A stretch of DNA of 64,000 nucleotides, from NCBI GenBank assembly GCA_965368165.1, contig CBDULT010000003.1:133474-197473 (forward strand), in the 5' to 3' direction. The DNA comes from an uncultured Thalassospiraceae bacterium. Its GTDB lineage: Bacteria; Pseudomonadota; Alphaproteobacteria; Rhodospirillales; JAPHRK01. The notes beneath the pieces were generated by a model. The model worked only from the letters and a program-made list of their open reading frames with translations, ran no database searches and was not told the origin of the DNA. Made by a program: the position numbers and the translations under genes. Positions 39,554-58,917 of this stretch are shown here, one piece after another. The first letter of the stretch is position 1; every line of letters starts with the position of its first letter.

Positions 39554-41674
39554 TTACTTGAAGCCACGCTTTGCGAGAGCAGCAAAGCAATCATCGATAT
39601 GTTGGTCGATTTCTAGGGCTAATGCCAGAGCTTCCCCCCCCTTATCCGTGCGGCAGAGGGCTACAATATTACGGGCAAAGTTAGAGACACCTATAACTCC
39701 CATATTTCCCGCAGCCCCTTGTAAACTATGGCACTCCTTTTCTAAAAGAGGAATGTCATTGGCTTCAACAGCCCGTTTAATCTCTCTTTGCCTGAGCTGC
39801 GAATCTTCAACAAATGATGTCATCAAATCTGAAAGAACGGTATTGCCTAGTGCTTGTCTTAATTCATCCAAAGTTTGATTGTTAATTTGAGCCCCAACGG
39901 GAATATCTGCTTTTTTTGTTAAGCGAGGTGGTTCAGCCGATGCGGAGTTTGGACCGCTGGAAGTCCATTGCTTCAGGATGCTATCCAGGGTTTCGCGCTT
40001 TATGGGCTTGGCAAGGCAATCGGTTGCCCCTTGCTCTTTGAATTTTTTAAAATCTTCAGGAGAAGCATGTCCTGTGACAGCAATGATAACAATGTCTTTT
40101 TCGTTCCCTTGGAGGGCGCGAATTGATTTGGTTGCTTCGATGCCATCCATTCTAGGCATCTCAACATCCATAAGGACGGCTGCATAAGCTTTGTTTTGGA
40201 CAGCATTGAGAGCTTCTAGACCGTCAGCAACGGTTTCTGAATCGTAGCCTATTGAACTCAAAAGACCCTGGGCGACCTTGCGATTGATGTCGTTGTCATC
40301 AGCAACAAGAATGAGCTTTTCTGATGATAGCGGCATTTCTTTTGAGGTTGGGACCGCTTTTGGTTTTTGAGCGGCTTCTTCGGGAACCGTGAAGGGAATC
40401 GTTACCCAGAATGAGCTTCCTTTGCCAAGTTCACTTGTAAATCCAATTTCACCTTTGAGAAGCTCAACAAGCTTTTGGCACAAAGTAAGGCCTATTCCCA
40501 TGCCGCCATACTGCCGAGACACGGATGAATCCCCTTGGGTGAAAGCGGAAAATAGGTTGTTGGCTATTTCCGGCTTAATCCCAATGCCCGTATCAGTGAC
40601 TTCAAGTTTTAAGGTAATAAGGTTCCGTGTTCTGAGCATCTGAGAAATACGGATATCTACATGACCTTTCTCGGTAAATTTAAGGGCATTACTGAGTAGG
40701 TTTTTCAGAATTTTACGAAAACTTTCGCTATCACCAATGAATGTACTAGGGAGTTGTGGGTCAATGTTATAGTTAAGAGGGAGGTTCTTTTGCGTTGCAC
40801 GATCTCGCAGGAAAAGAAGTGTAGCCTCAATGACATCGGTAAGTTCGAATTTTTCTGACTGAACCTTCACTTTGCCGAATTCTAAATCAGAAAAAGTAAG
40901 AATTTCATTGATCTCAATCTGAAGAGCCAGAGCTGATTCCTGGATGGATTTGGCAAAGTTTTTCTGAGATTGGTCTAATTCACTTTGCAAGAGGAGCTCG
41001 GTCATACCAATCACCCCGTTCATTGGGGTGCGCAACTCGTGGCTAACAGCAGACATAAACTCAGATTTAGCTTGGTTTGCATGCTCGGCTATTTGTAAAG
41101 CTTTCGTCAGCTCCGCTTCTTTGTTTTTAATTTCAGAAATGTCACGAATGGAAAGGGTGAAGCCGATTTCCCCGATAGAGTCACAGCGAATCTCAACGAC
41201 TTGCCCGTTTGGGCGAAAATGATCTAACTGAACGGGATAATCTATCGCAGAACGAATTGAAGTGAGAAGTTTTTCTGAATAATCGTCTGTGTCAAACTCA
41301 CCTGCTTGGCCGAGATAAGTAAGCTGCTCATTTAAGGAAACACCAGGTTCGACTAACTCTGAGGGGAGGTTCAGGCTTTCCTGAAGTGCTTTGTTGCAGA
41401 GTATAAGGTTTTCATTTTGATCGAAAAGGGCGAAGCCGGGGTTAAGGGCATTGAAGGCAGTTTTGAGAGTTTGAGAGTTGATTTCGTTTTCTAAAGCAGT
41501 CGAAAGTTGCTTGGAGTGGTTGCTGAAAAGGCTGTCAATAGCCTCCATTATTTCCATAATGGTTTCAGTCGCAGGACCAGAGCTGCCTTCGATAAGTTTC
41601 GAAAGCCCTTCAAAAATAACGAGTTTGGAGGTATCGAGCTCCTCTGCGATTTCTTTTAGAGTCTTAGTACTCAC
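39554..41674 (-). CDS. Hybrid sensor histidine kinase (PAS-HisKA-HATPase-REC-HPt)
   Basis: H-box MSAVSHELRTPMNG, G-box GGMGIGLTLC, REC (ILVADDNDINR...LMDVEMPRMDG), and a C-terminal HPt with HSLQGAAGNMG. Confidence 0.9.
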   Translation of the reverse strand: MSTKTLKEIAEELDTSKLVIFEGLSKLIEGSSGPATETIMEIMEAIDSLFSNHSKQLSTALENEINSQTLKTAFNALNPGFALFDQNENLILCNKALQESLNLPSELVEPGVSLNEQLTYLGQAGEFDTDDYSEKLLTSIRSAIDYPVQLDHFRPNGQVVEIRCDSIGEIGFTLSIRDISEIKNKEAELTKALQIAEHANQAKSEFMSAVSHELRTPMNGVIGMTELLLQSELDQSQKNFAKSIQESALALQIEINEILTFSDLEFGKVKVQSEKFELTDVIEATLLFLRDRATQKNLPLNYNIDPQLPSTFIGDSESFRKILKNLLSNALKFTEKGHVDIRISQMLRTRNLITLKLEVTDTGIGIKPEIANNLFSAFTQGDSSVSRQYGGMGIGLTLCQKLVELLKGEIGFTSELGKGSSFWVTIPFTVPEEAAQKPKAVPTSKEMPLSSEKLILVADDNDINRKVAQGLLSSIGYDSETVADGLEALNAVQNKAYAAVLMDVEMPRMDGIEATKSIRALQGNEKDIVIIAVTGHASPEDFKKFKEQGATDCLAKPIKRETLDSILKQWTSSGPNSASAEPPRLTKKADIPVGAQINNQTLDELRQALGNTVLSDLMTSFVEDSQLRQREIKRAVEANDIPLLEKECHSLQGAAGNMGVIGVSNFARNIVALCRTDKGGEALALALEIDQHIDDCFAALAKRGFK

Positions 41675-41847: not shown

Positions 41848-42939
41848 TTGCCCAGCCTTATTAAAAACGAGTGTTTTGTTAGAATGTCTGCAAGTTCCGC
41901 TTTAAATGTGATGCAACGCCGACACAACATAATAGCCTTATGGCTTTTGTTGGTTTGCCTAATGGTCTTTGCCATGATTGTCCTCGGAGGTGTGACTCGG
42001 TTGACCCAGTCTGGGTTGTCTATGGTCAATTGGCATCCGGTCACGGGGTGGTTCCCTCCTTTAAATGAAGCCGATTGGCAATCAGAATTTGCAAATTATC
42101 AACAATACCCTGAATTCCATAAAAAGAATTTTGATATGGATTTGCAAGGGTTCAAGTCAATTTTTTGGTTTGAATTCCTTCACCGTTTGTGGGGTCGAAC
42201 AATTGGGATCGCCTATTTTGTCCCGATGGTTTTTTTCTTCACGATGGGATGGGTTCAGGGTGGTTTAAGGTTAAAGCTTGTGATTGGATTCGTCCTTGGG
42301 GGACTTCAGGGCGTTTTGGGTTGGTACATGGTAAAGAGTGGGTTGGTTGATAATCCTGATGTTAGCCAATATCGGCTAACGGCTCACTTGGGAGCGGCCT
42401 TGATAATTATAAGCTATCTCCTTTGGTTGGCACTTGGTCTTTTGCATCCCAAACGAAATCAACCTAAAAAATCTTTTGGAAAATTATCAAGGCATGCGTT
42501 TTTTGCCACTTCGTGGGCTTTTATTACCCTTTTGTCAGGTGGTTTTGTCGCTGGGTTGGATGCGGGGTTAACCTATAACACTTTCCCTTTGATGGATGGG
42601 CAGTTGGTTCCCGATGGGCTCTTTCAAATGGAGCCAGTATTTATTAATTTTTTTGAAAATATAACAACAGTACAATTTGATCACCGTCTGCTTGCCGAGT
42701 CCTTGTTTGTTATCATTGTTTATCTTTGGTGGCGGGCGAGGGAGCTGGATATTCCTCAGCGGGGACGGTTGGCACTTAATTTACTTTTTGCCATGATTTG
42801 GATTCAGGTTGGGTTAGGTATTACCACCCTGCTGTTGGTGGTTCCGGTTTCTATCGCCGCCATTCACCAGGCTGGGGCAGTGATTGTCCTCAGTTTGGCT
42901 ATTTGGGTTACTCATGAAGCCAAGAACGCCAACTCCTAA
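41848..42939 (+). CDS. ctaA: Heme A synthase (COX15/CtaA)
   Basis: Eight TM helices with conserved His in LHR and DHR motifs (FEFLHRLWGR, QFDHRLLA). TTG start in the track; the ATG at 41884 (MSASSAL) is an alternative. Confidence 0.85.
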   Translation: MPSLIKNECFVRMSASSALNVMQRRHNIIALWLLLVCLMVFAMIVLGGVTRLTQSGLSMVNWHPVTGWFPPLNEADWQSEFANYQQYPEFHKKNFDMDLQGFKSIFWFEFLHRLWGRTIGIAYFVPMVFFFTMGWVQGGLRLKLVIGFVLGGLQGVLGWYMVKSGLVDNPDVSQYRLTAHLGAALIIISYLLWLALGLLHPKRNQPKKSFGKLSRHAFFATSWAFITLLSGGFVAGLDAGLTYNTFPLMDGQLVPDGLFQMEPVFINFFENITTVQFDHRLLAESLFVIIVYLWWRARELDIPQRGRLALNLLFAMIWIQVGLGITTLLLVVPVSIAAIHQAGAVIVLSLAIWVTHEAKNANS

Positions 42940-42971
42940 TAATTAAAGATGTTTGGAAATAAGGTTTAACT

Positions 42972-43160
42972 ATGGATTTATTTTATTTTACCGCTGCAGG
43001 AATCGTCTCCTGGGTTGTTGCTGATGCCCTGTTAGACCGAATCGAAACCATGAGGGGGAAGCGTTTTACCCATCGAAGCGTCATTTTCTTCGGATTGATC
43101 CTGGTAACACTGCTTATTGTCTTCGAAGGAAGTAAATACATCCTTGGGGCAAAAACCTAA
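42972..43160 (+). CDS. Small two-TM hypothetical membrane protein
   Basis: 62 aa with two hydrophobic helices, lying 32 nt downstream of ctaA. Confidence 0.4.
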   Translation: MDLFYFTAAGIVSWVVADALLDRIETMRGKRFTHRSVIFFGLILVTLLIVFEGSKYILGAKT

Positions 43161-43177
43161 GCGTTTACTTTATTAAG

Positions 43178-43191
43178 TTGATTTAACTCAA
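43178..43191. promoter_or_regulatory. FNR/Dnr-type box, one mismatch (TTGATttaaCTCAA)
   Basis: Matches TTGAT-N4-ATCAA except for one base. It lies upstream of the HCO operon, but about 360 nt from the first ORF. Confidence 0.4.
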
Positions 43192-43552
43192 GGGTATGAA
43201 ATTAAACCAATTTTACCTGAGAGGTTACCCGAAAAAATAAGTGAAACTTTGGTTCGATGATGGCTAATTCTTGACGAAGGTTAAGGCTATTTTTGGACCA
43301 AAATGGTCTTTTGTGTTAAATCACGCAGTCGAATGCGTCTTTTTTCGTGGAAATATGGCGAAAAAAAGGCCATGGTGTGCGAGGATTGAATTAATCCGGC
43401 GGTAGGATTGTTGAGGGACCATTTTGCGGTTGCGCCCTAGGGGGGGCAATTTCCGCGCAACCCGAAGCATAATTTCCGCTTTAGTTTTTTTTGTTGGTGA
43501 GTCTCCCCCGTGAGATGAGCCAATTCATTTTGGGATTTGAGGGAGGTTCTTT

Positions 43553-43711
43553 ATGACCGAACCCAATAACACTGAGGACGGCCCTGTTCCGTTCATGCAA
43601 CAGCTTTTGGATAATCCATTTTTGCTGCTGTTCGTAGGCGTCGCATTACCGTCGGTTCTTTACACAATCTGGGGAATCGTGGACGTAATGTCGATTCCTG
43701 TTGGTCAATAA
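43553..43711 (+). CDS. Unlisted 52-aa single-TM ORF preceding HCO subunit II
   Basis: ATG preceded by GGGAGG at -12 to -7. Reads MTEPNNTEDGPVPFMQQLLDNPFLLLFVGVALPSVLYTIWGIVDVMSIPVGQ*. It ends 18 nt before subunit II and is below the ORF-track size cutoff. Confidence 0.45.
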   Translation: MTEPNNTEDGPVPFMQQLLDNPFLLLFVGVALPSVLYTIWGIVDVMSIPVGQ

Positions 43712-43729
43712 GGGATAGGAGATCGCACT

Positions 43730-44266
43730 ATGGCTATTTTCCCCCCACCACAAAAAATTTGGTGGAATGAGCCGGTAGAGAGAACTGAAGCTCTCTGGAT
43801 CGGTATCGCCCTTATTTGGGCGATGATCTTGTTCTTCATGATGCCTTATTGGCACATTGTTGGGCAACAAAACCTTTCAAATGAAGCTTACAAGGTTAGC
43901 CCTGAAGCTTTTGTTGAAAAAGTTGATGCTTATGTTGCTGCGAATACTATTCGCGAAGAAGGTGACACTGGCATTCCTGTTGTAAAAGCAACTGACAGCG
44001 GCGACGTTTATATGCTTGGTCGTCTATGGGAATGGTTCCCGATTCTTGAGCTTGAAAAAGGCAAAAGCTATCGTTTCCATCTTTCCTCTGCTGACTGGCT
44101 GCATGGTTGGTCACTTCAGCCTACCAACATCAATATTCAGGTTCACCCTGGCTATGAGATGATCTTTAACGTAACGCCAACCGAAACCGGTGAATTCGGC
44201 GTTGTTTGTAATGAATTTTGTGGAGTTGGTCACCATACCATGCTCGGCAAAATTTATGTGAAATAA
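43730..44266 (+). CDS. Heme-copper oxidase subunit II with intact CuA site
   Basis: One N-terminal TM helix and a cupredoxin domain. CuA ligands are H125 (DWLHGW) and C160-NEF-C164-GVG-H168-HT-M171. Confidence 0.85.
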   Translation: MAIFPPPQKIWWNEPVERTEALWIGIALIWAMILFFMMPYWHIVGQQNLSNEAYKVSPEAFVEKVDAYVAANTIREEGDTGIPVVKATDSGDVYMLGRLWEWFPILELEKGKSYRFHLSSADWLHGWSLQPTNINIQVHPGYEMIFNVTPTETGEFGVVCNEFCGVGHHTMLGKIYVK

Positions 44267-44279
44267 GGGGGCATTAACA

Positions 44280-45962
44280 ATGGCTGCGACTCACGAATAT
44301 CGCACATGTCCTGACACTGGATTCAAAATTGATCTTAATGCTGATAAGCTGATCAAATGGAATGCCGTGTCAGCTGTAGTGTTCTTGCTCGTTGGTGGTC
44401 TTTTTGGCCTCCTGGTAGCTCTAACACGCTGGCCTACAGTACACTTACTGGACGCTGAACTTTTCTATCTGGCTCTGACTGCACACGGTGTGGACATCCT
44501 TTTGGTATGGCTGATCTTCTTTGAAATGGCCCTGCTTTACTTCTGCTCTAGCGTTCTCCTGCAATGCCGTGTAGCCACACCAAAACTCGGTTGGCTTGCT
44601 TACTGGCTGATGCTTGGTGGTGCTGTAATGGGTAACGTTGCCGTTCTGATGGGCGAATCCAGCGTTATGTTCACCTCTTACGTGCCGATGAAGGCTTCTC
44701 CCTTGTTCTACTTGGGTCTGATCCTTTTCGCCGTTGGTGCACTTATCGTTTGTTTCATCTTCTTCGGCACTTTGGTTATTGCTAAGAAAGAAAAAACCTT
44801 CGAGGGTTCAATTCCTCTGGTGACCTATGGTGCCATGGTTGCAGCTATTATCGCTGTTTACACCATCGTATCTGGTGCTGTGATCCTGATCCCGACCCTT
44901 GCTTGGTCATTAGGTTTTATTCCTTACATTGATACCCTGCTCTATAAGGTTATCTGGTGGGGACTTGGTCACTCTTCTCAACAGGTTAATGTTTCCGCTC
45001 AAATCTCTTGCTGGTACGCTGTTGCCGCAGTCGTTTTTGGTGCGAAGCCAATTTCCGAGAAGGTTTGCCGTACGGCCTTCCTCATGTACATCTTGTTCCT
45101 GCAGTTAGCTTCTGCTCACCACCTTCTGGTGGATCCAGGCCTGACTTCAGAATACAAGATCTTCAACACCTCTTACGCTTTCTACCTCGCTGTATTCGGT
45201 TCCATGATGCATGGTTTGACCGTTCCTGGCGCGATGGAATTGGCGCAGCGCCGCAAGGGCTACACCAAAGGGCTGTTTGAGTGGCTGAGGAAAGCTCCTT
45301 GGGGTAATCCTGCATTCTCAGGTACTTTCCTGTCGATCGTTATCTTTGGCTTCCTCGGTGGTATCACCGGCGTTGTTATGGGTACCGAGCAGTTGAACCT
45401 GATCATGCACAACACCATCTATGTACCGGGTCACTTCCACGCTACGACAGCTGGTGGTACCACATTGGCATTCATGGCTCTGTCTTACTGGTTGGTTCCA
45501 ACCTTATGGCAACGTGAGCTTTGGGCACCGGGTCTGGCTAAACTTCAGCCTTACCTGTTCGGTATCGGTGTTTCCGGTATTGCTCTGTTCCAAATGGGTG
45601 CTGGTACCTTGGGTGTTTCCCGTCGTCACTGGGATATGACCTTTGCTGATGCTGCTTTGACCTATGACTATCCAGCTGCGGCTCACCTTATGATGGCTCT
45701 TAATGGCGTGTTCGCTATTATCGCTGCTATCGGTGGTGGTCTCTTCTGTATCCAAATGGTCCTTACCATTCTTGGTAAGAAAAAACCAGCTCCTGCAGAA
45801 GCTCCTGCTGCACCAGCTGCCGAAGCTCTGACTGGTCACGGTCATGGCGCAGGTCTTGCTGTACCAGGAACCTTTGTTTTGGCTCTGATCTTCTTGACCA
45901 CTTTCGTTCTCTACTATTTCGTGAACTGGAAGTATCTGTCAGAAGTCTGGATCCTCAGCTAA
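44280..45962 (+). CDS. Heme-copper oxidase superfamily subunit I, B-family-like, lacking the cross-linked Tyr (candidate NO reductase)
   Basis: Six canonical His: H69, H231, H280/H281, H385/H387. The motif is GH231-SSQ-Q235 where A/B oxidases have H-x3-Y. An extra C-terminal helix follows a Pro/Ala linker. Confidence 0.9.
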   Translation: MAATHEYRTCPDTGFKIDLNADKLIKWNAVSAVVFLLVGGLFGLLVALTRWPTVHLLDAELFYLALTAHGVDILLVWLIFFEMALLYFCSSVLLQCRVATPKLGWLAYWLMLGGAVMGNVAVLMGESSVMFTSYVPMKASPLFYLGLILFAVGALIVCFIFFGTLVIAKKEKTFEGSIPLVTYGAMVAAIIAVYTIVSGAVILIPTLAWSLGFIPYIDTLLYKVIWWGLGHSSQQVNVSAQISCWYAVAAVVFGAKPISEKVCRTAFLMYILFLQLASAHHLLVDPGLTSEYKIFNTSYAFYLAVFGSMMHGLTVPGAMELAQRRKGYTKGLFEWLRKAPWGNPAFSGTFLSIVIFGFLGGITGVVMGTEQLNLIMHNTIYVPGHFHATTAGGTTLAFMALSYWLVPTLWQRELWAPGLAKLQPYLFGIGVSGIALFQMGAGTLGVSRRHWDMTFADAALTYDYPAAAHLMMALNGVFAIIAAIGGGLFCIQMVLTILGKKKPAPAEAPAAPAAEALTGHGHGAGLAVPGTFVLALIFLTTFVLYYFVNWKYLSEVWILS

Positions 45963-46016
45963 AGGCTGCGGTGAAGGTAATCTGTTAAAACGATTGCCGA
46001 GTTAACTTTTTAGGGG

Positions 46017-46057
46017 GGGCGCCTTTCCGGTCACGGAAGGGCGCCCTTCTTTTTTTC
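46017..46057 (+). terminator. Rho-independent terminator after HCO subunit I
   Basis: 13-bp GC-rich stem (46017-46029 / 46034-46046, one G-U pair), 4-nt loop, then TTCTTTTTTT. Confidence 0.7.
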
Positions 46058-46094: not shown

Positions 46095-46108
46095 TTGACC
46101 TAGAACAA
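46095..46108. promoter_or_regulatory. FNR/Dnr-type box, one mismatch (TTGACctagAACAA)
   Basis: Lies just upstream of the SCO1 gene. The spacing implies a very short leader or use of the internal Met (MTKT, 46159). Confidence 0.35.
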
Positions 46109-46134: not shown

Positions 46135-47022
46135 ATGCTGAGCATGTTGATATCAAAAATGACCAAAACTTTGTTGAGTTTTTTTACGGCTCTTTTCGCC
46201 CTTGTGGTAATGATGGGGAACCTGTCTTTAGCGGCTCCAAGTGCTGTTATTGATGCTTGGCCTCCTAACGCCAAAGATATGGATCAAAAGGCCGCGTTTA
46301 AATATAGCCAAAGCGCGCTGAAGCACGTGATCAGAGACGCAAAATTTACGGATCAAAATGGCAACCCGGTTTCATTGGCTGATTTCAGGGGGAAACCCTT
46401 GGTCGTAAGCTTTATCTATACAAGCTGTGTTTCCGTTTGTGTCACCATTACTGATAGCCTGTTACATTCTCTAGATGTGGCGAACGAAACCTTTGGTGAA
46501 GATCAATTTAATATTCTAACCATTGGCTTTGATACCAGTTTTGACACGCCTGAAAGTATGAAAAAGTTTGCCGAAAGGCAGGATGCGGGAGCAAAAAACT
46601 GGATGTTTTTGAGCGGTGATATCCTCAATGTTTCCCAGCTTTCCGATGACTTGGGGTTCTTCTTCTATCGGACCCCAGAGGGGTTTGACCACCTGGCTCA
46701 AGTTACCGTGATTAATAAAGTTGGTAAGGTTTATAAACAGGTTTACGGTGAATCCTTTGATACGCCTCACCTTATTGAGCCCCTCAAGGATATTATTTAT
46801 CATACGGAAAAGTCGATTTTTACGGCCGAAGGGCTCTACAAGAAACTGCAGTTCTACTGCACTGTGTATGACCCGGAGACCGATAGATATAAGTTTGACT
46901 ATTCCTATTTTATCAGCTTATTTGCGGGAGTTACCGTGATGATAGTTCCTGCTTGGGTGCTGTTCAGAACCGTGCGAAGAACTCGAAGTGAGCGGAACGC
47001 ACGAAAAGCAAAATTAGTTTGA
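46135..47022 (+). CDS. SCO1/SenC copper chaperone with extra C-terminal segment and second TM helix
   Basis: N-terminal anchor and thioredoxin-fold CxxxC (SFIYTSCVSVCVT) with a downstream His (FDHLAQV). The C-terminal YCTVYDPETDRYKFDYS is followed by a TM helix. Confidence 0.8.
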   Translation: MLSMLISKMTKTLLSFFTALFALVVMMGNLSLAAPSAVIDAWPPNAKDMDQKAAFKYSQSALKHVIRDAKFTDQNGNPVSLADFRGKPLVVSFIYTSCVSVCVTITDSLLHSLDVANETFGEDQFNILTIGFDTSFDTPESMKKFAERQDAGAKNWMFLSGDILNVSQLSDDLGFFFYRTPEGFDHLAQVTVINKVGKVYKQVYGESFDTPHLIEPLKDIIYHTEKSIFTAEGLYKKLQFYCTVYDPETDRYKFDYSYFISLFAGVTVMIVPAWVLFRTVRRTRSERNARKAKLV

Positions 47023-47128
47023 CGATGGTCAAGGCGTCAAAGCCGCTCTAAACATATAGAACTGCTAATATTCAATACGAGTTTAAGGCCATTGGTCTTA
47101 TTGAAAATAATTCGAAAGGTTTCGTAAA

Positions 47129-48712
47129 TTGTTGGATGCATTTAAGACTGCACTCAGGGTGCCATTCCTCTATTTCGAAGGACTTCTGGATGCTATTTTT
47201 GGGCAGCGGTTTAATCCGGTGTACCATCTTGGCGCACTCTGCTGGTTTTTCTATTGGATCGTTGCAATTACGGGTCTTTACCTGTTCATGGTTTTTGATA
47301 CAGGCGTACATGTCGTATACGAATCAATTGAATGGTTAACCAATGAGCAGTGGTGGTTTGGCGGCATCGCCCGGAGCCTCCACCGTTATGCTTCTGATGG
47401 TATGGTTTTTGCCATGCTTATTCATATGCTGCGGGAATTTGCCTTAGATCGTTATCATGGTGTGCGGTGGTTTGCATGGTTTACAGGCGTGCCGCTGATC
47501 TGGCTTCTTTTGACTTCAGGGATTACAGGCTATTGGTTGGTCTGGGATGAATTAGCCCAGTACATGGCTGTCGCCTCTTTTGAATGGCTTGATTGGCTTT
47601 CAATCTTTAGTGAACCTATTGCCAACAACTTCTTGCGTGAAGGCAGCCTTGGGGATCGTTTCTTCACCTTGCTGATCTTCATCCACATTTTTGTGCCGCT
47701 ATTTATGTTGTTTATCATGTGGATTCATCTGCTGCGTATGGCGCGAGCTGAAATCAATCCACCGAAAGCGATTGCCTTGGGGGCCTTTGCTCTATTGCTT
47801 GTCCTCTCTTTGGTCTATCCAGCAACAAGCCACCCGCCTGCTGACCTGAGTAAAATTCCGGTCGTTCTTAATCTCGATTGGTGGTTCTTGTTCGGCTATC
47901 CCTTCTTGGATATGACAGGACCAGGAACTCTATGGGCTGTCGCGGTTATTGGCTCTATAATTATTGCTGTACTGCCTTTTGTTATTCCTCATCGTATACC
48001 GACCCCAGCAGTCGTTAACCTTGATAATTGTAATGGCTGTGGACGTTGTTTTGAGGACTGTCCCTTTGGTGCAGTAACAATTCAACCCCGGACGGATGGT
48101 CATCCTAAGTATGAATTTGAGGCTATTGTTAAGGATAGCTTCTGTACCGCATGTGGAACTTGTTCGGGGGCCTGTCCATCCTCAAGCCCTTATCGTCGTG
48201 GCGAAGAACTGGTCACGGGTATTGATCTTCCAGACGTCCCGCTGACGGCTATTCGGGCAAGGCTTAATGCTGAGGCTAAGCGCTTAAAAGGCGATGTTAA
48301 GATTGTTGTCTTTGGATGTGAATTCGGAGGGGCTTTGAAGGAACTCGAAAGCGATGTGGTCGGAACGGTGCAAATGTCTTGTATAGCCCAGGTTCCTCCC
48401 GCATTTATTGAATATGCTTTGTCTCGTGCTGGGTTCGACGGTCTCGTCCTTTCAGCTTGTCGCCCAGGGGATTGTTATCACCGATTGGGTGTCCATTGGA
48501 CTGAAGAACGTTTGACTGGTTATCGGGACCCCTACCTTCGTCCAAAAATTTCTCGTGACGCCATCCGTGTTACCTGGGCGCGTCCAACCGAAATGGGGAA
48601 AATTAAACGTGAACTTGGTGAGTTTGTTGAGACTGTTACCAACAGAAAGACGGCTCCTGTAATTGATTCTGCTGAAGTTACCGATGCTAACGAAACGACA
48701 ACAGGCGAGTAG
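47129..48712 (+). CDS. Fusion protein: di-heme cytochrome b core + 2x[4Fe-4S] ferredoxin domain + MvhD/FlpD-like domain
   Basis: H85/H99 and H186/H200 sit at the 14-residue register. Cluster motifs CNGCGRCFEDCP and CTACGTCSGACP. MvhD-like VVFGCEFGG...MSCIAQV...GFDGLVLSACRPGDCYH. TTG start. Confidence 0.8.
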   Translation: MLDAFKTALRVPFLYFEGLLDAIFGQRFNPVYHLGALCWFFYWIVAITGLYLFMVFDTGVHVVYESIEWLTNEQWWFGGIARSLHRYASDGMVFAMLIHMLREFALDRYHGVRWFAWFTGVPLIWLLLTSGITGYWLVWDELAQYMAVASFEWLDWLSIFSEPIANNFLREGSLGDRFFTLLIFIHIFVPLFMLFIMWIHLLRMARAEINPPKAIALGAFALLLVLSLVYPATSHPPADLSKIPVVLNLDWWFLFGYPFLDMTGPGTLWAVAVIGSIIIAVLPFVIPHRIPTPAVVNLDNCNGCGRCFEDCPFGAVTIQPRTDGHPKYEFEAIVKDSFCTACGTCSGACPSSSPYRRGEELVTGIDLPDVPLTAIRARLNAEAKRLKGDVKIVVFGCEFGGALKELESDVVGTVQMSCIAQVPPAFIEYALSRAGFDGLVLSACRPGDCYHRLGVHWTEERLTGYRDPYLRPKISRDAIRVTWARPTEMGKIKRELGEFVETVTNRKTAPVIDSAEVTDANETTTGE

Positions 48713-48721: not shown

Positions 48722-49288
48722 ATGAAAACGAACATTGTTCCAGATAAATATTTCCCAGAAGGTATTGCCGAAAAAGTAACGCCTGCGGTGTTGGTTCGTC
48801 GCATAATAGGCTTGTCAGCTTTTGCTCTTCTGACCATGTTTATTATTGGATACTTTTCAGCGTCTCCGGCTTATCATCACTTGGCTGAAAACGAAGCCGT
48901 TATTAAAGTTAGTATTACCCATAACGGGAAACGCCTTCAGGCATGTGTGAAAAAGACACGGGCCGAGTTGGCAAAATTGCCTCCAAATATGCGGGCAAAG
49001 ATGACTTGCGGACGTGAAAGAACACCTGTTCTATTGGTTGTGGCTATTGATGGGAAAGAAATTTATCGTCATGTTTCAAAGCCTAACGGTCTTTCCAGTG
49101 ATGGAGCTTCTATTTTTTATCAAAAACTGATTGTTCCTACGGGGACTCACGAAGTAAGTGTCTTGATGCGTGACAGCGTGCGCGATGAAGGTTTTGATTT
49201 TGAATATAGAGATAAGGTTGATTTGACCAGTGGTCGCAACTTTGTTGTGACCTTTGATGAGCAAAATCGCAAATTTAAAATCTATTGA
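48722..49288 (+). CDS. Single-TM hypothetical protein co-transcribed with the cytochrome b fusion
   Basis: Starts 9 nt after the upstream stop. One TM helix (IIGLSAFALLTMFIIGYF), then a beta-rich domain with two Cys. Confidence 0.5.
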   Translation: MKTNIVPDKYFPEGIAEKVTPAVLVRRIIGLSAFALLTMFIIGYFSASPAYHHLAENEAVIKVSITHNGKRLQACVKKTRAELAKLPPNMRAKMTCGRERTPVLLVVAIDGKEIYRHVSKPNGLSSDGASIFYQKLIVPTGTHEVSVLMRDSVRDEGFDFEYRDKVDLTSGRNFVVTFDEQNRKFKIY

Positions 49289-49316: not shown

Positions 49317-49330
49317 TTGACTTTTGTCAA
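49317..49330. promoter_or_regulatory. Perfect palindromic FNR/Dnr/NnrR box TTGACttttGTCAA
   Basis: Exact TTGAC-N4-GTCAA, 52 nt upstream of the first Crp/Fnr gene start. Confidence 0.7.
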
Positions 49331-49337: not shown

Positions 49338-49376
49338 GAATAGGTGTCGGCATTCGGCACCTATTCTTCTTATTTT
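49338..49376 (+). terminator. Rho-independent terminator after the cytochrome b operon
   Basis: 12-bp stem (49338-49349 / 49555-style pairing at 49355-49366, one G-U pair), 5-nt loop, then TTCTTATTTT. Confidence 0.6.
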
Positions 49377-49381: not shown

Positions 49382-50110
49382 GTGAGCCACGTGACAGAAA
49401 CCAGTTCCCAATTTTTACCGGATAACGCTCTTGGAGCTTTAAAAGCGACAGCTCTTTTTAAGCGGTTGCCGAAGGATCAAATCGCTACTCTTTTTAGCGG
49501 TGGGGCTGTTGAAGAAATGTCTCTTAATGAGGTCCTCTTTAAACAAGACGAAGATGCTGATCGCTTTTATTTAATTCTGAGTGGTCGCGTCGAATTGTTT
49601 GTTGAGTCGGCGAAACACAAAGAAAGCATTATCGATATTATTGGTCCGGGTGAATATTTTGGAATTGCGTCTATCTTTGAAAAAGGGGCTTTCCAAAACG
49701 GCGCTAAAGTCGTTGAAGACGCAACTTTCGTGGTCATGCCAGCGATTCCTTTCCTTGAGCACTTAGAGGGCAACTTCCCCCTTATTAAAGATATGATGGC
49801 CAGCATGTCTTTTCATCTTCGCTCCCTGGTCCGTCAGGTGAGTGAGCTAAAGCTCAAAACAACGGGGCAACGGTTGGGGAGTTTTCTTCTTGGGCTTACC
49901 GATGTTGAAACCGGCAAGGCTCAGGTAAAACTTCCCTATGACAAAAAATTACTGGCGAATCGTTTAGGGATGAAACCTGAAAGCCTCTCAAGAGCTTTAG
50001 GGAAATTAAGAGATGTGGGAGTTGTTGGGGACCATGACTCATTGATTTTAGAAGATGTGGAAACTTTAAGAATATTTTGTCAGGATTCTGACTTGATGCA
50101 GTCATCATAA
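49382..50110 (+). CDS. Crp/Fnr-family regulator, Dnr/NnrR type (no N-terminal Cys cluster)
   Basis: cNMP-binding-like beta-roll, dimerisation helix, and an HTH with the FNR-family E-x-x-S-R motif (MKPESLSRALGKL). GTG start. Confidence 0.85.
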   Translation: MSHVTETSSQFLPDNALGALKATALFKRLPKDQIATLFSGGAVEEMSLNEVLFKQDEDADRFYLILSGRVELFVESAKHKESIIDIIGPGEYFGIASIFEKGAFQNGAKVVEDATFVVMPAIPFLEHLEGNFPLIKDMMASMSFHLRSLVRQVSELKLKTTGQRLGSFLLGLTDVETGKAQVKLPYDKKLLANRLGMKPESLSRALGKLRDVGVVGDHDSLILEDVETLRIFCQDSDLMQSS

Positions 50111-50147: not shown

Positions 50148-50846
50148 TTGAAGTCAGTATCACGGTTATTAAGCGATGAAGACCTCGAACTGGTCTGTAA
50201 AGCACCAACCTTTATTGAACTCCCAGAAGAAGACGTTGAGCGATTGATGTCCAGTGCTTCAGCCCGGAGCATGCCCCGTCATACCTTATTGTTTAGTCAA
50301 GGCGACCCTGCTGATCGATTCTATGTGGTCCTTGGGGGGAAAGTTAAACTTTTCACTGCCATGGAAAGTGGTGATGAGGGGGTCGTCGAAATAGTTGAAC
50401 CCATCCACACTTTTGCCGAAGCGGCGATGTTTGCTTCTGGCAAATTTCCTGTAAATGCTGAAGTTGTCGAAAACTCAGTATTGGTCCAGGTAAGTGCCGA
50501 GCCTTTTTTTAGAGAGCTTTCGCAAAACACAGCCTTGGCTTTTAAAATCATGGCGGCAATGTCACGTCGTCATCGTCGCCTGCTTAGGCAAATCTCCGAC
50601 CTTAAATTAAAGTCCCCAGGTCAACGCTTAGGGTCGTTCTTGCTCTCTTTGACGGAGAAGCTAGAGGGAAAGGCTCATGTCAAACTTCCCTTCGATAAAA
50701 CCCTTATTGCCAGCCATGTGGGCATGAAACCAGAAAGCCTTTCTCGGGCTATGGCGCGCCTTAGAGATATTGGTGTGATATGTGAGAGGCGCGATGTCGA
50801 GATTAATGATATCAACGCCCTCAGGGTCTTCTGCGGCGAAGAGTAG
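50148..50846 (+). CDS. Second Crp/Fnr-family regulator, Dnr/NnrR type, tandem paralogue
   Basis: Same architecture and HTH (MKPESLSRAMARL). Strong similarity to the upstream copy (GQRLGSFLL.LT...GKA.VKLP.DK.L). TTG start. Confidence 0.85.
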   Translation: MKSVSRLLSDEDLELVCKAPTFIELPEEDVERLMSSASARSMPRHTLLFSQGDPADRFYVVLGGKVKLFTAMESGDEGVVEIVEPIHTFAEAAMFASGKFPVNAEVVENSVLVQVSAEPFFRELSQNTALAFKIMAAMSRRHRRLLRQISDLKLKSPGQRLGSFLLSLTEKLEGKAHVKLPFDKTLIASHVGMKPESLSRAMARLRDIGVICERRDVEINDINALRVFCGEE

Positions 50847-51269
50847 TTACTTCGTAACGGTAACTTCCCCTGTCATCCCTTCCTGATCCCAATGGGGGCC
50901 GCAGAGGTAAGGGTAATTACCCTCATCCTCAAATTTGATTTCAAAGGCCTCATCAGGGAAAAACCTTTCTGATTCGGGCATTTTGGCCTCTTTTGGCCAA
51001 ACACTATGGCTGGTCCGCTTATCAACATTTACCCACCGAACGGTCATTCCTGGCTTGATGGTAATTTTCATCGGGCAGAAATTATATTTGTAAGTTGTCA
51101 CCACGACCGTGTTCGCAGGTAACTTCTCACTGCCAAATAATTCCTGATAGCGTGCGTCGGCTTTTTTACAGATTGCTGCGCGCTCAGCATCTGTGCTTCC
51201 TGCTTGTGCTGAGGCAGGAAAGGTAAAGGCTGAAATTATGGCTAATGTGAGAAGTGCTTTCTGAAACAT
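50847..51269 (-). CDS. Periplasmic type-1 copper protein (cupredoxin; pseudoazurin/plastocyanin-like)
   Basis: Signal peptide (FPASAQA). Ligand set is His (RTSHSVW) plus C-GP-H-WDQEG-M at the C-terminus. Confidence 0.8.
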   Translation of the reverse strand: MFQKALLTLAIISAFTFPASAQAGSTDAERAAICKKADARYQELFGSEKLPANTVVVTTYKYNFCPMKITIKPGMTVRWVNVDKRTSHSVWPKEAKMPESERFFPDEAFEIKFEDEGNYPYLCGPHWDQEGMTGEVTVTK

Positions 51270-51440: not shown

Positions 51441-54119
51441 TTAGTTTTTGATTGCGTTTATTTCAGCGTCACCATTATCGATGCCGAGCTTGTATTCCAG
51501 TGATACGTGGTGGAAACGAGCTGTTGTGTAGTCATCGTGAATGGCAAAACCAACGGTGTAGAGTTTACCAGGTTCAAGAGAAACCAAACCGTTGGCAGCC
51601 TTTAAAGGCCGTTTCATGGTTACGGTCCAAACGCCATCGGCGAGGGTGCCCGTATATTCTACCGATTGCCCCCCCGTCATATCACGTTTGTCGAGAACAA
51701 CACCTGATTCAGAAACGCCACCATTCCCACTGAGGAAGCGGGTGAGGTCCATGAACTGGCCGGCGCTTTTCAGGCCATCAATATCGCCTTGTGGTTTGGC
51801 TTTGTCCCAGGCACCGCGTGGTTTGCCATCGTTGCCGTTGACTTCCCATTCGGTTTTGGTTTCCAGCAAATATTTAGTAACACCTGCTTTTGCCGCGTCC
51901 TGGTCTTTAGGGTGGTCAGGCATGTAGCGTGAGTCATGGTGACAGGTTGCCCAACAGCCAGCATGTGTGGCTTTTTCAACCTTGTCATCATCAATCATCA
52001 TGGCGAACTTGATTTGGTTCGCAGGGTCCATTTTACCGCCGTCGACGAAAGGTACAGGGGCGTGGGCTACGTCAGGCCACTGGAACTGCATGTGAAGGTT
52101 TTCACCATCATTAACAGCTTTAACGCTGACTTTAATATGGCCGCGTTTGCCAGGAATTGGGGTCGGCTCGGCTTTTTCACCAGAGACGATCTTGGCACCC
52201 ATTTGCTCTTGTTCACCTTCGTGACATTCGGTGCAGCGATCATCTAATTTCTTGATCGCACGCGCCCCACCATGATCAGAGCCTTTGTAGACCCACTCAA
52301 GGGAAGCCTGCCCAGGGTATAAGAAAGTGATTTCCTTTGCAGTTGCTTTGCTAAAGTCGATGCTTCCACCACCACTAGAAGAAGCGGCGGCAGGCGTGGC
52401 AGCATCAGCAGCAGGAGCGGCAGAAACCGTCCCCCCCGCTGGGGCAGCAATGGTTGCGGCATTTACATCAGCTTCCGCATTGTCGATGCCAACCTTGTAT
52501 TCCAAGGAAACATGGTGGAACCGAGCATTGGTGAAGTCATCGTGAATGGCAAAGCCCATGGTGTAGAGCTTGTCTTTCTCGAAGGATACAAAACCATCTG
52601 AGGCTTTCAGCGGACGGGTTAAGAAAGCAACCCATTTTCCATCAACCAAATTGGCTGTGATAGTAGATTTAGCACCACCTTCCATAACGCGTTTGTCGAG
52701 GACATAACCCGTTTCGGTTTTCTTGTCGCCGCTTTTGTAGCGAACCAAGTCAAGGAAGACGCCGTCTTTCTTGTAGCCATCGATTTCAGCTTGAGGACGA
52801 GCTTTGTCCCAGGCTCCGCGAGGAACGCCATCGTTGCCGTTGACCTCCCACTCGGTTTTAGTTTCCAGCAAATATTTTGTGATACCCGCTTTAGCCGCAT
52901 CCTGGTCTTTAGGGTGATCAGGCATGTAGCGTGAATCGTGGTGACAGGTTGCCCAGCACCCGGCATGGTCAGCTTTTTCAACTTTGCCATCGTCAAACAT
53001 GACAGCAAGTTTGATTTGGTTGGCTGGATCCATTTTCCCGCCGTCAACAAAAGGAACAGGGGTGTGGCCTGCATCGTCCCATTCAAAGCGCATGTAAAGG
53101 TTTGTGCCGTCATTGGCAGCCTTTACGTTTGCTTTAATGTGACCTCGTTTGCCTGGGATGGGAGTCGGTTCGGCTTTCTCACCAGAAACGATCTTGGCAC
53201 CCATTTGCTCTTGTTCACCTTCGTGGCACTCGGTGCAACGATCGTCTAGTTTTTTGATCGCGCGTGCGCCACCATGGTCGGAGCCTTTATAGACCCACTC
53301 AAGGGAAGCTATGCCAGGGTAGAGGAGAGTAATGTCCTTCCCTTCTACACCGTCCCAAGCAATCGCTTCGGCACTTCCACCACCTGAGGCAGCGGCGGCT
53401 TTTGGTGCCGGAGCTGCTGCGGCAGCTTTTTTAGCTTCTTCAGCTTTTTGGGCATCAGCAGCGGCCTTGAGTTCACCTTTGGTTGGTTTCTTTTCTTTTG
53501 GTGGCAAGTGACGATCATCGCCTGCTTTACCATCATAAGCGTCTTCACCTTCGCGAAGCAGGCCGCTAACATCTCTGTGAGCGATGCCTTTATGACAATC
53601 GATGCAGGTCATGTTGTCGGCTTGTGCCAATTGGTGATTTTTCCAAGCACGTTTTTTCTGTTTGTCTTGCTTCATGCTATCCCAGGAGTGACAGTTACGA
53701 CATTCTCTGGAATCAGTTTCCTTCATCGCCTTCCAAACATTTTTGGCGAGCTGGAAACGCTTCGCTTCAAATTTTTCAGGCGTATCAATTGTTCCAAGAA
53801 CCTTATGAAGAACCTCGTTCGAGGCTTGGATCTTCCGGATCATTTTATAGATCCAAGGCTTAGGGACGTGACAGTCTGAACAGGTTGCACGAACACCAGT
53901 TCGGTTCTGGAAGTGAACCGTTTCTTTGTATTCCTGATAGACGTTGTCTTCCATTTCATGACATGAAATACAGAAAGGCAATGTCTGGGTAGCTTCCATA
54001 ACCGTATTGAAAGCACCCCAAAAAACGATACCGACAACAAAAAATACTGCTGCGGCGAATAATGATGCCCCTAAAGGGCGCCAGGAAAGGATACGTGTAA
54101 TCATATCACCAATGGCCAT
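51441..54119 (-). CDS. nirT: NapC/NirT tetraheme quinol dehydrogenase fused to two tandem heme-c + beta-sandwich (NirB / cytochrome c-552-like, EB_dh-type) modules
   Basis: N-terminal TM helix plus CISCH, CSDCH, CRNCH and TCIDCHKGIAH, then a Lys/Ala/Pro linker. Two ~300-aa repeats follow, each with CTECH and CWATCH. Strong SD (GGGGGGAAG). Confidence 0.85.
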   Translation of the reverse strand: MAIGDMITRILSWRPLGASLFAAAVFFVVGIVFWGAFNTVMEATQTLPFCISCHEMEDNVYQEYKETVHFQNRTGVRATCSDCHVPKPWIYKMIRKIQASNEVLHKVLGTIDTPEKFEAKRFQLAKNVWKAMKETDSRECRNCHSWDSMKQDKQKKRAWKNHQLAQADNMTCIDCHKGIAHRDVSGLLREGEDAYDGKAGDDRHLPPKEKKPTKGELKAAADAQKAEEAKKAAAAAPAPKAAAASGGGSAEAIAWDGVEGKDITLLYPGIASLEWVYKGSDHGGARAIKKLDDRCTECHEGEQEQMGAKIVSGEKAEPTPIPGKRGHIKANVKAANDGTNLYMRFEWDDAGHTPVPFVDGGKMDPANQIKLAVMFDDGKVEKADHAGCWATCHHDSRYMPDHPKDQDAAKAGITKYLLETKTEWEVNGNDGVPRGAWDKARPQAEIDGYKKDGVFLDLVRYKSGDKKTETGYVLDKRVMEGGAKSTITANLVDGKWVAFLTRPLKASDGFVSFEKDKLYTMGFAIHDDFTNARFHHVSLEYKVGIDNAEADVNAATIAAPAGGTVSAAPAADAATPAAASSSGGGSIDFSKATAKEITFLYPGQASLEWVYKGSDHGGARAIKKLDDRCTECHEGEQEQMGAKIVSGEKAEPTPIPGKRGHIKVSVKAVNDGENLHMQFQWPDVAHAPVPFVDGGKMDPANQIKFAMMIDDDKVEKATHAGCWATCHHDSRYMPDHPKDQDAAKAGVTKYLLETKTEWEVNGNDGKPRGAWDKAKPQGDIDGLKSAGQFMDLTRFLSGNGGVSESGVVLDKRDMTGGQSVEYTGTLADGVWTVTMKRPLKAANGLVSLEPGKLYTVGFAIHDDYTTARFHHVSLEYKLGIDNGDAEINAIKN
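51462..52373 (-). repeat. Internal coding repeat 2 of the NirT fusion (aa 583-886)
   Basis: See repeat 1. Shared blocks include PVPFVDGGKMDPANQIK, HAGCWATCHHDSRYMPDHPKDQDAAKAG, KYLLETKTEWEVNGNDG and ARFHHVSLEYK. Confidence 0.9.
52476..53384 (-). repeat. Internal coding repeat 1 of the NirT fusion (aa 246-548)
   Basis: Aligns along its whole length with aa 583-886 at an offset of 334 aa (1002 nt). The first 57 aligned residues from LEWVYKGS are identical. Confidence 0.9.
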
Positions 54120-56036: not shown

Positions 56037-56050
56037 TTAACTTTGGTCAA
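56037..56050. promoter_or_regulatory. FNR/Dnr-type box, one mismatch (TTAACtttgGTCAA), on the nirS side of the divergent region
   Basis: Near-palindrome about 170 nt upstream of the preferred nirS ATG. Confidence 0.5.
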
Positions 56051-56316
56051 ACATCCCCTATGCATCTAGTGGAAAACCCTAAGTTAGGCGAAACTGTTGT
56101 AAATATGCTCATTCTGGTGGAGTTTTTCTTGGTAGATATATTTCCTTAAGAAGGGAGCTGAGCCTAAAATGCGTACCATTCCTTAGAAAATCATGAGAAT
56201 CGATTTTTGAAAGATTGGCCTCGAAACTAAAATATAATCTGGTATATATAATAAGAGTAAGGCTTTATTTTTTCAGATTTTGTTTAGGGAATACCCTAAT
56301 ATAGCTGGGAAGGATA

Positions 56317-56330
56317 TTGACCAACATCAA
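56317..56330. promoter_or_regulatory. Consensus FNR/Dnr box TTGACcaacATCAA upstream of the nirE operon
   Basis: Both half-sites match the consensus. The centre is about 105 nt upstream of the nirE GTG. Confidence 0.7.
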
Positions 56331-57208: not shown

Positions 57209-57226
57209 TACTGGGTATTACTTAAA

Positions 57227-57577
57227 ATGAAATTTTTCCGCCTGTCCCAAGGGGCATGGCTTTGCGCCGCCATTCTGTCTCTTCCGTTTTTTGTACCTTC
57301 TGCCGCAGGTGCAGAGCCTTCTGCGGAGCGTAAAGCTGAACTGGCTTATTTTCTTGAGCAGGACTGTGGCTCTTGCCATGGCTTGACCCGCAAGGGGGGG
57401 CTTGGGACTCCGCTTACGCCAGAAAGTGTCGCTAAAACAGATGACGAAACCCTGTTTGATGTCATCATGAATGGTATCCCTGGAACGCCTATGCCGCCCT
57501 GGAAGGCGTTGCTAAGTTCCGATGAAGTCCATTATTTGATCCAGCTCATAAGAAAAGGGAAAAACCACGATGGTTAA
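57227..57577 (+). CDS. nirC: Monoheme cytochrome c (c55X-type)
   Basis: Signal peptide and CGSCHG. Small class-I cytochrome located between nirE and nirF. Confidence 0.8.
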   Translation: MKFFRLSQGAWLCAAILSLPFFVPSAAGAEPSAERKAELAYFLEQDCGSCHGLTRKGGLGTPLTPESVAKTDDETLFDVIMNGIPGTPMPPWKALLSSDEVHYLIQLIRKGKNHDG

Positions 57578-58748: not shown

Positions 58749-58790
58749 TAGTATAATAATTACCTAAACAGGCCACGCCGCTACTAAAAT

Positions 58791-58902
58791 ACGTCACTCC
58801 CGCGAAGGCGGGAGTCCAGAAATGAAGGTATAGATATTTAATGATGATCGACCGCACAGTTCATGCAACCCTGGATTTCCGCCTTCGCGGGAATGATGAC
58901 GT
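58791..58902. repeat. 112-bp MITE/REP-like palindromic element between nirF and nirD
   Basis: Left end is ACGTCACTCCCGCGAAGGCGGGAGTCCAG. The reverse complement of the right end is ACGTCATCATTCCCGCGAAGGCGGAAATCCAG. Each end also contains its own GCGGGA/TCCCGC mini-hairpin. Confidence 0.6.
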
Positions 58903-58917
58903 TTGAGCTAAGTATTT

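Follow-up and report, generated by a model that had tools for sequence, protein, structure and literature searches.

An eNOR-type heme-copper enzyme encoded beside nirS in a Rhodospirillales genome as a probable nitric oxide reductase

Gene content of the locus

We analyzed a 64-kb stretch of a Rhodospirillales genome (the window; all positions below are window coordinates) that carries, in the same island as nirS, an operon for a heme-copper oxidase (HCO), which we consider here as a candidate member of the eNOR family of nitric oxide (NO) reductases. The operon encodes subunit I (44280-45962, + strand; 560 aa; Pfam COX1, E = 2.7e-65) and subunit II (43730-44266, + strand; 178 aa), the latter consisting of one transmembrane helix and a cupredoxin domain (Pfam COX2). 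Immediately 5' of subunit II lies orf52 (43553-43711, + strand), which encodes a single-helix membrane protein of 52 aa and has a GGGAGG ribosome-binding site ahead of its ATG. The original prediction had placed a heme A synthase gene, ctaA, 5' of the operon and a SCO1 copper chaperone gene 3' of it, and Pfam searches confirmed both. The ctaA gene (41884-42939, + strand; Cox15/CtaA family) matched COX15-CtaA (E = 1.9e-107), and the gene for a Sco1/SenC-type chaperone (46135-47022, + strand), which has an extra C-terminal membrane anchor, matched SCO1-SenC (E = 4e-16). The open reading frame (ORF) of ctaA is open from a TTG at 41848; gene callers begin it at the ATG at 41884, giving a protein of 351 aa on identical metagenome contigs, and the called start is 41884 rather than 41848.

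Glutamine at the position of the cross-linked tyrosine

Subunit I has all six canonical HCO histidines at the positions predicted for them: His69 and His387 as ligands of the low-spin heme, His385 of the high-spin heme, and His231, His280 and His281 of metal B. The top Protein Data Bank (PDB) match of subunit I was subunit I of the Thermus thermophilus ba3 oxidase (phmmer, E ~1e-47), and the alignment, which is free of gaps around the site, pairs His231 with ba3 H233 and Gln235 with ba3 Y237. A multiple alignment agreed, matching the six histidines to ba3 H72, H233, H282, H283, H384 and H386. Pairwise and multiple alignment thus both confirmed the central claim made for this locus, that Gln stands at the position of the cross-linked Tyr237 of ba3. 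Nucleotides 44970-44984 read CAC TCT TCT CAA CAG and encode H231-S-S-Q-Q235, with the Q235 codon at 44982-44984. The low-spin heme ligands are His/His, unlike the His/Lys variant mentioned for some eNORs.

To compare this site across relatives, we used the best 80 loci of a genome scan (loci L008-L087; subunit I identity 63-86%), which come from metagenome-assembled genomes (MAGs) labelled Alpha-, Beta- or Gammaproteobacteria and from Paramagnetospirillum caucaseum, and in which the window proteins were matched by tblastn. Gln235 was present in 80/80 loci, within the motif GH[SA][SA]QQ[IV]N, and its CAG codon is two base changes away from a Tyr codon. The invariance and the two-base distance speak for selection at Gln235 and against an error. 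In a published table of diagnostic active-site residues, the position holds Tyr in O2 reductases, Glu in cNOR and qNOR, Asn in sNOR and Gln in eNOR (Schwartz et al. 2022, PMC8756737 Table A4, after Hemp & Gennis 2008), and the same paper defines eNOR by Gln at the Tyr site. The original prediction had named Gln as the eNOR signature, and the table bears this out.

Subunit II carries the complete CuA site that had been claimed for it (H125, C160, C164, H168 and M171). The ligand spacing is that of ba3 subunit II, the ligands are invariant in 81/81 subunit II sequences, and the top PDB matches were ba3 subunit II and its CuA domain (E = 1e-16). Directly 5' of subunit II, an orf52 homologue was found in 78 of the 80 loci, with a median identity of 53%. 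In ba3, a small one-helix gene (cbaD, subunit IIa) is likewise placed 5' of subunit II. Judged by this placement, orf52 probably encodes a small, unannotated third eNOR subunit positioned like ba3 subunit IIa.

Family placement of subunit I

Databases contain more than 8000 homologues of subunit I; among those with names, the closest is a protein of 96% identity from a Rhodospirillales MAG, and the identical protein is present on several metagenome contigs. The genome of the 96% relative is assembly GCA_026196105.1. We drew motif classes from the full-length relatives among 50%-identity cluster representatives. The GHxxQQ class contains subunit I, a relative of 53% identity and a relative of 40% identity from the haloarchaeon Natrarchaeobius. 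A GHxxQY class, 37-46% identical to subunit I, comes from Hodarchaeales and Thermoproteota MAGs, and a ba3-like GHPxVYFW class shows ~30-35% identity.

We placed these sequences in a neighbor-joining tree (41 sequences, 524 columns, 50 bootstraps), in which P. caucaseum and the haloarchaeal protein stand in for the named eNOR references of Rhodothermus marinus, strains MS-1 and AMB-1 and Natronomonas. Subunit I grouped with 12 proteobacterial sequences, including that of P. caucaseum, at 98% bootstrap, and the haloarchaeal GHxxQQ protein joined this clade at 94%. The Tyr-bearing GHxxQY group was its sister (88%), and the ba3-like oxidases were distant. In this tree subunit I therefore lies inside the Gln-bearing clade and outside the Tyr-bearing B-type oxidases, as the original prediction would have it. 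A 2019 preprint describes 'K family' O2 reductases that cluster with eNOR (bioRxiv 10.1101/592808), and the archaeal GHxxQY group probably corresponds to them. These archaeal oxidases are the nearest non-eNOR relatives of subunit I, with Q234, Y246, Y270, S308 and H311 in common, and differ from it in retaining the cross-link Tyr. As a side observation, the GHxxQY relatives P0126, P0132, P0133 and P0143 already carry Q234, H311 and Y270 as in eNOR, and the exchange of Tyr for Gln is the sole difference between eNOR and the GHxxQY group among the binuclear-site residues compared.

The families eNOR, sNOR, gNOR and nNOR have been described as Tyr-less relatives of the B-type oxidases (Murali et al. 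2024, PMC11214002). That study reports that the eNOR purified from R. marinus reduces NO but is inactive toward O2, confirming the activity cited in the original prediction; that this enzyme has heme As at both heme sites; that eNORs have CuA subunits; and that many eNOR operons contain ctaA (PMC11214002). Like the eNOR of R. marinus DSM 4252 (Rmar_0161), the enzyme studied here is a Tyr-less, B-family-derived protein with a CuA subunit II, the Gln signature, K-channel-like residues, a linkage to heme A synthase and nirS in the genome. The two differ in that R. marinus belongs to the Bacteroidota and the present organism to the Alphaproteobacteria, and R. marinus is the sole source of the demonstrations of activity and heme As. 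The same study identifies the 'cytochrome a1-like' protein of Magnetospirillum magnetotacticum MS-1 as an eNOR and names MS-1 and AMB-1 as eNOR holders (PMC11214002). The current genus of both strains is Paramagnetospirillum, and our comparison used the congeneric P. caucaseum in place of the MS-1 and AMB-1 sequences themselves. Its orthologue is 68% identical to subunit I, and both organisms are Rhodospirillales. The motif W[GAI][MLV]GH[SMG][ST]QQ occurred in at least 594 of 185,579 species genomes scanned; eNOR has been reported in 547 genomes of the Genome Taxonomy Database (PMC11214002). The family is thus already described and widespread, and the locus has been correctly recognized and is not novel in kind.

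We also compared subunit I with the residues that mark the other families. In a B-family (ba3-type) O2 reductase, the fourth residue beyond the first CuB His is Tyr, and Gln235 takes that place here. The gNOR family is marked by an active-site His replaced by Asp and a subunit II without CuA ligands; all metal B histidines and all CuA ligands are present here. An active-site Glu, the fourth FeB ligand, marks nNOR, cNOR and qNOR, in place of which subunit I has Gln235, and nNOR has a His/Met low-spin heme, as against His69/His387. In ammonia oxidizers the sNOR genes are ordered norSY-senC-orf1, so that senC and an uncharacterized ORF follow the structural genes. This arrangement suggested an sNOR at the present locus, a reading excluded by Gln rather than Asn at the site and by the retained Ser308. 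The sNOR enzymes resemble the one studied here as Tyr-less, B-related HCOs with a CuA subunit; sNOR and bNOR have Asn at the Tyr site, and sNOR lacks an S309 equivalent (PMC8756737, PMC11214002), unlike the eNOR here with Gln235 and Ser308. Among NCBIfam models, no nor model matched subunit I, and no family-level model matched subunit I, subunit II, orf52, orf62 (a small upstream ORF, see below) or orf188 (a downstream gene, see below), all matches lying far below the cut-offs.

Proton-path residues and Tyr270

We mapped onto subunit I the K-path residues of ba3 (Y248, S261, S309, T315, T312 and Y244). Four are kept, as Y246 (ba3 Y248), S259 (S261), S308 (S309) and T314 (T315), and two are replaced, T312 by H311 and Y244 by Ile242. 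Published work holds that eNOR retains a K-channel-like path including the equivalent of ba3 S309, which sNOR lacks (PMC11214002), and the K-channel-like residues expected of an eNOR (Y246, S259, S308, T314) are present in subunit I. In subunit II, Glu20, just ahead of the membrane helix, was found in 80/81 aligned sequences, the remaining one having a gap there; it is a candidate counterpart of Glu15 of ba3 subunit II. The ba3 oxidase (PDB 1EHK, 1XME) is the best structural template for the enzyme, sharing the six histidines, a one-helix CuA subunit II, the Y248/S261/S309/T315 equivalents and a small one-helix gene upstream of subunit II. It differs in Y237 (Q235 here), V236 (Q234), T312 (H311) and Y244 (Ile), at an overall identity of ~30%, and it reduces O2 and pumps protons.

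The original prediction had raised the possibility that Tyr270 compensates for the lost Tyr in the manner of cbb3 oxidases. Tyr270, the only candidate for such a role, is conserved, equally so in the Tyr-keeping GHxxQY sister clade, and sits 10 residues before the HH pair; the migrated Tyr of cbb3 lies 6 residues before it. Tyr270 is therefore unlikely to be a migrated cross-link Tyr: its presence in a clade that keeps the original Tyr and its HH-10 rather than cbb3-like HH-6 spacing suggest an ancestral feature rather than a relocated cross-link partner. Perhaps Tyr270 has a role in the proton path.

These residues bear on whether the enzyme could instead be an O2 reductase of the B/K lineage, serving microaerobic respiration either without the His-Tyr cofactor or with Tyr270 giving the fourth electron. 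The closest solved structure is an oxidase, ba3, and the nearest Tyr-bearing relatives (37-46% identity) share Q234, H311 and Y270. CtaA moreover requires O2, and expression of R. marinus eNOR needed microoxic conditions (PMC11214002). Yet the purified R. marinus enzyme did not reduce O2 with several donors, and a migrated Tyr has been found in none of these Tyr-less families (PMC11214002). Tyr270 is unlikely to compensate, as it already occurs in the Tyr-keeping sister clade and at HH-10; Gln235 is invariant over at least 594 genomes; and the denitrification-type regulatory boxes and the linkage to nirS described below favor NO as the substrate. We consider an O2 reductase very improbable.

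Conservation of the gene cluster

Across the 80 loci we found a core cluster, strictly colinear and on one strand in ~95% of them, with the order orf52, subunit II, subunit I, sco, a cytochrome b-iron-sulfur (FeS) fusion gene and orf188. The last two genes had gone unmentioned in the original prediction. Both subunit genes were present in 80/80 loci, sco in 79, orf52 in 78 as noted above, the cytochrome b-FeS gene in 76 and orf188 in 73. The core-gene absences that were checked lay at or near contig ends, which probably explains most of the absences. Adjacency of ctaA is the exception among close relatives (6/80 loci), and the usual neighbor is ctaB, located between subunit I and sco in 51/80. 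A ctaB dedicated to the cluster could be connected with the geranylgeranyl side chain found in heme As.

The P. caucaseum locus has the order ctaA-orf52-II-I-ctaB-sco-cyt b/FeS-orf188. It shares with the window the order ctaA-orf52-II-I, then sco-cyt b/FeS-orf188, and differs from it in the ctaB gene (UbiA family) between subunit I and sco. The eNOR neighborhood of AMB-1 contains ctaA and ctaB (bioRxiv 10.1101/2021.10.15.464467), and the P. caucaseum locus, with both genes, matches this published neighborhood. Further out, the locus of the 53% relative (L089) keeps II-I-sco-cyt b/FeS-ctaB beside nirS and napA, with a 36-aa ORF in the place of orf52. At L089 we further observed an extra gene of 497 aa with a weak COX1 match (5844-7337), just 5' of the small ORF and subunit II, and the eNOR cluster there adjoins nirS and napA/napD. 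The haloarchaeal eNOR-type locus has neither sco nor the cytochrome b-FeS fusion.

We found discussion of eNOR accessory genes in the literature only in a preprint on Ferrigenium straubiae (bioRxiv 10.64898/2026.01.22.701106). It lists as common the genes for eNOR II, eNOR I, heme O synthase, sco1 and a 'scaffold protein of unknown function', and calls cytochrome b-FeS genes in the same operon 'rather unusual' (bioRxiv 10.64898/2026.01.22.701106). Contrary to the latter description, cytochrome b-FeS genes are the rule in the 80 loci. Taken together, the signature residue, the clade, the CuA site, the channel residues and the synteny with Paramagnetospirillum agree, and the assignment of subunit I to the eNOR family is strongly supported at the level of sequence.

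Accessory redox genes

The gene after sco (47129-48712, + strand) encodes a protein of 527 aa in which a membrane di-heme cytochrome b is fused to a 2x[4Fe-4S] ferredoxin domain and a FlpD/MvhD-like domain (Pfam Cytochrome_B, Fer4_7 and FlpD). His85/99 and His186/200 have the heme ligand spacing of bc1-type cytochrome b, and the protein has two CX2CX2CX3C motifs and 4 further Cys in its FlpD/MvhD-like domain. A count of the membrane helices predicts that the Fe-S part lies on the cytoplasmic side. The fusion follows sco in the 76 loci that have it and also at the locus of the 53% relative. It has at least 4560 homologues, all with generic names such as 'hydrogenase iron-sulfur subunit'; the matches listed comprise close relatives only. 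Downstream, orf188 (48722-49288, + strand) encodes an N-terminal membrane helix and a beta-sandwich domain, with invariant residues C75, C96, R98 and R100. An AlphaFold (AF2) model showed the membrane helix and beta-sandwich at a predicted local distance difference test score (pLDDT) of 90. Searches of Pfam and NCBIfam gave no match for orf188, its homologues are all 'hypothetical', and comparison of the model with PDB folds was uninformative.

We tentatively suggest, as a doubtful but possible reading, that Sco, the cytochrome b-FeS-MvhD fusion and orf188 form a dedicated and so far undescribed redox module of eNOR. Such a module could carry electrons into eNOR or away from it by a second path, linked to quinone or to the cytoplasm, in a respiratory supercomplex. 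It could also be an electron-handling maturation system, for example by serving as the electron partner so far missing for heme A synthase or by opening an oxygen-independent route to heme A. The last of these, if true, would explain how denitrifying cells make a heme A enzyme.

Conserved uncharacterized redox partners also bear on whether the enzyme catalyzes a different reaction at the Gln site, such as NO dismutation, N2O reduction or nitrite-linked chemistry. Other Tyr-less HCO families have been proposed as NO dismutases or N2O reductases, and the Magnetospirillum homologue was purified decades ago without a function being assigned (PMC11214002). Against this, production of N2O from NO has been measured for one eNOR family member, and the kinship of the families proposed as NO dismutases and N2O reductases is with qNOR and cNOR rather than with the B family (PMC11214002). 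A different reaction thus seems to us extremely unlikely.

The nirS island and its regulation

In agreement with the original prediction, Pfam searches placed nirS and the d1-heme genes in the same island as the operon, within 10 kb. Cytochrome cd1 nitrite reductase is encoded by nirS (54260-55870, - strand; Pfam Cytochrom_D1, E = 1.5e-117, with a cytochrome c domain), and nirE, C, F, D, L, G, H, J and N (56429-63537, + strand) serve heme d1 biosynthesis and accessory functions, with Pfam matches to TP_methylase, Cytochrome_CBB3, Cytochrom_D1, NirdL-like_HTH (four times), Radical_SAM and Cytochrom_D1. The window had been said to hold no norB or norZ, and we found none: no further PF00115 (COX1/NorB) gene was called in the 64 kb, and tblastn with subunit I returned no paralogue there.

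Between the two gene clusters lie tandem Crp/Fnr-family regulator genes (49391-50110 and 50148-50846, + strand; Pfam cNMP_binding and HTH_Crp_2). Both proteins lack the FNR Cys cluster and have an E-S-L-S-R recognition helix. Pfam thus upholds the Crp/Fnr pair; the 'Dnr/NnrR-type' label given to it before is based on the missing FNR Cys cluster, the ESLSR helix and the context rather than on a family-specific model.

Exact TTGAY-N4-RTCAA boxes of the FNR/Dnr type occur 3 times in the window, as compared with 0.38 expected, and all lie within the nirS-eNOR island. One, TTGACGATGGTCAA, is upstream of the cytochrome b-FeS gene (47019-47032, + strand), and another lies between orf188 and the first regulator gene (49317-49330, + strand). 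The third (56317-56330) is in the divergent nirS-nirE promoter region (56037-56330, + strand), which has a further box with one mismatch nearer nirS (56037-56050). Boxes with one mismatch also lie 27 nt upstream of the sco start codon (46095-46108, + strand) and 275 nt upstream of orf52, where the candidate box TTGACGAAGGTTAA (43271-43284, + strand) falls within a patch of sequence that the 96% and 86% relatives have kept. A near-consensus FNR box at 43178 was dropped because it is not conserved in these two relatives. In the related loci a box was found within 300 nt upstream of orf52 in 59/77 (49 exact; median distance 125 nt), as against 0/385 in coding-region controls. FNR/Dnr-type boxes thus stand ahead of every transcription unit of the island, and the pattern is the regulation expected of a denitrification enzyme.

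A strong intrinsic-terminator-like hairpin (46012-46051, + strand; 18 pairs, 11 of them GC, and a T-run) follows subunit I, and a terminator-like hairpin (49338-49366, + strand) lies after orf188 and before the first regulator. With hairpins at these two points, the structural and accessory genes may be separate units.

This arrangement gives good grounds for inferring that eNOR is the NO reductase that works with NirS. The enzyme would then share with cNOR and qNOR (NorBC, NorZ) their presumed reaction and their genomic partnership with nirS and Dnr/NnrR regulators. We weighed this against a genuine eNOR whose role is to detoxify or scavenge NO during microoxic growth, with a cNOR or qNOR encoded elsewhere as the partner of NirS. 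Many organisms have several NOR families (PMC11214002), and only 64 kb of this genome are visible. Moreover, any cd1-family gene was found within 10 kb of the eNOR cluster in 26/80 related loci, and a full-length NirS (>=43% identity) in 13/80, so that ~54-67 of the 80 are without a cd1 gene at that distance; the tandem regulator pair adjoins the cluster in 19/80. At the present locus, however, eNOR shares one island with nirS, the d1-heme genes, the Dnr-like regulators and the box types, and R. marinus and F. straubiae rely on eNOR and have no other NORs (PMC11214002; bioRxiv 10.64898/2026.01.22.701106). A role confined to detoxification is, on balance, unlikely.

A model for NO reduction

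Taking these results together, we consider it quite probable that the locus encodes an NO reductase of the eNOR family, with two or three subunits, derived from B/K-type heme-copper O2 reductases. From the sequence features, clade membership, synteny and regulatory boxes shown above, we infer NO-reductase activity, the heme type, the identity of metal B, proton uptake, the electron donors and the regulation. Electrons from periplasmic carriers would enter at CuA of subunit II. The candidate carriers, a neighboring cupredoxin and cytochromes of the c type, would receive their electrons from bc1 or from a NirT-like quinol dehydrogenase. The candidate donor among the neighbors is a periplasmic type-1 copper protein of the plastocyanin/azurin family (50847-51269, - strand; Pfam Copper-bind, E = 8.5e-10). 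From CuA, electrons would pass to the low-spin heme (His69/His387) and on to a binuclear centre formed by the high-spin heme on His385 and the metal bound by His231, His280 and His281. At this centre two molecules of NO would be converted to N2O, with Gln235 in place of the His-Tyr cofactor; because this is a two-electron reaction, the His-Tyr radical cofactor would be dispensable. Protons would probably come from the cytoplasm through the K-channel analogue (subunit II E20, then T314, H311, S308, Y246 and S259), and such cytoplasmic uptake would make the step electrogenic. Both hemes are probably of the heme A type, made with the adjacent CtaA, and CuA would be loaded by the adjacent Sco protein. 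The two Dnr-like regulators probably drive expression through the TTGAY-N4-RTCAA boxes, jointly with nirS; eNOR so co-expressed would clear the NO made by NirS in low-oxygen denitrification.

Several points weigh against this model. The ctaB gene, usual in related clusters, was found nowhere in the 64-kb window. The tree is a neighbor-joining tree with 50 bootstraps rather than a maximum-likelihood tree, and the link to the R. marinus enzyme is indirect, being made through Paramagnetospirillum, the haloarchaeal protein and the signature Gln. The best box 5' of orf52 has one mismatch and is unusually distant. Finally, the genome beyond the 64 kb may hold norBC or norZ, in which case eNOR would perhaps be one of several NO reductases.

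Public databases still name eNOR genes cytochrome oxidase. With such labels, genome surveys would score this nirS organism as free of NO reductase and overlook a source of N2O, and the same mis-scoring has been described for Ferrigenium (bioRxiv 10.64898/2026.01.22.701106). If eNOR draws protons from the cytoplasm, NO reduction would conserve energy, and the energetics of denitrification would change for these Rhodospirillales, which are widespread in marine and sediment habitats. The remaining interest of the locus lies in this mis-annotation problem and in the conserved, uncharacterized accessory module, little discussed so far. Targets for work on the wiring and maturation of eNOR, including heme A assembly at low oxygen, are orf52, the cytochrome b-FeS-MvhD fusion, orf188 and the FNR/Dnr boxes.

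Additional features of the window

Between ctaA and the eNOR promoter region lies orf62 (42972-43160, + strand), which encodes a small hydrophobic membrane protein of 62 aa. Its homologues, found in 44/80 loci, are usually just 5' of orf52, and it has no match in Pfam or NCBIfam. The long leader before orf52 contains a GC-rich inverted repeat, GGTTGCGC ... GCGCAACC (~43425-43470, + strand). The 96% and 86% relatives both retain this repeat, in which one base change is compensatory and another disruptive, and Rfam has no match to it. Scans of the window with Rfam and for tRNAs returned nothing, and sigma-70 promoter matches were no more numerous than in shuffled sequence.

Divergent from ctaA is a gene for a hybrid histidine kinase (39554-41674, - strand) with the architecture PAS-HisKA-HATPase-REC-Hpt, conserved in the 96% relative and located near only 8/80 eNOR loci. 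The nirS island also includes a 41-aa ORF. Between nirS and the type-1 copper protein gene, we found a gene (51441-54119, - strand) for a protein of 892 aa that joins a NapC/NirT tetraheme quinol dehydrogenase to a pair of EB_dh (heme b) domains (Pfam Cytochrom_NNT, E = 3e-71; EB_dh, E = 2.5e-65 in 2 stretches) and occurs in only 3/80 related loci. Just past the right end of the window, on locus L007 (16967-19610), nirN is followed by DUF2249 and hemerythrin-domain genes, which are often linked to NO stress.

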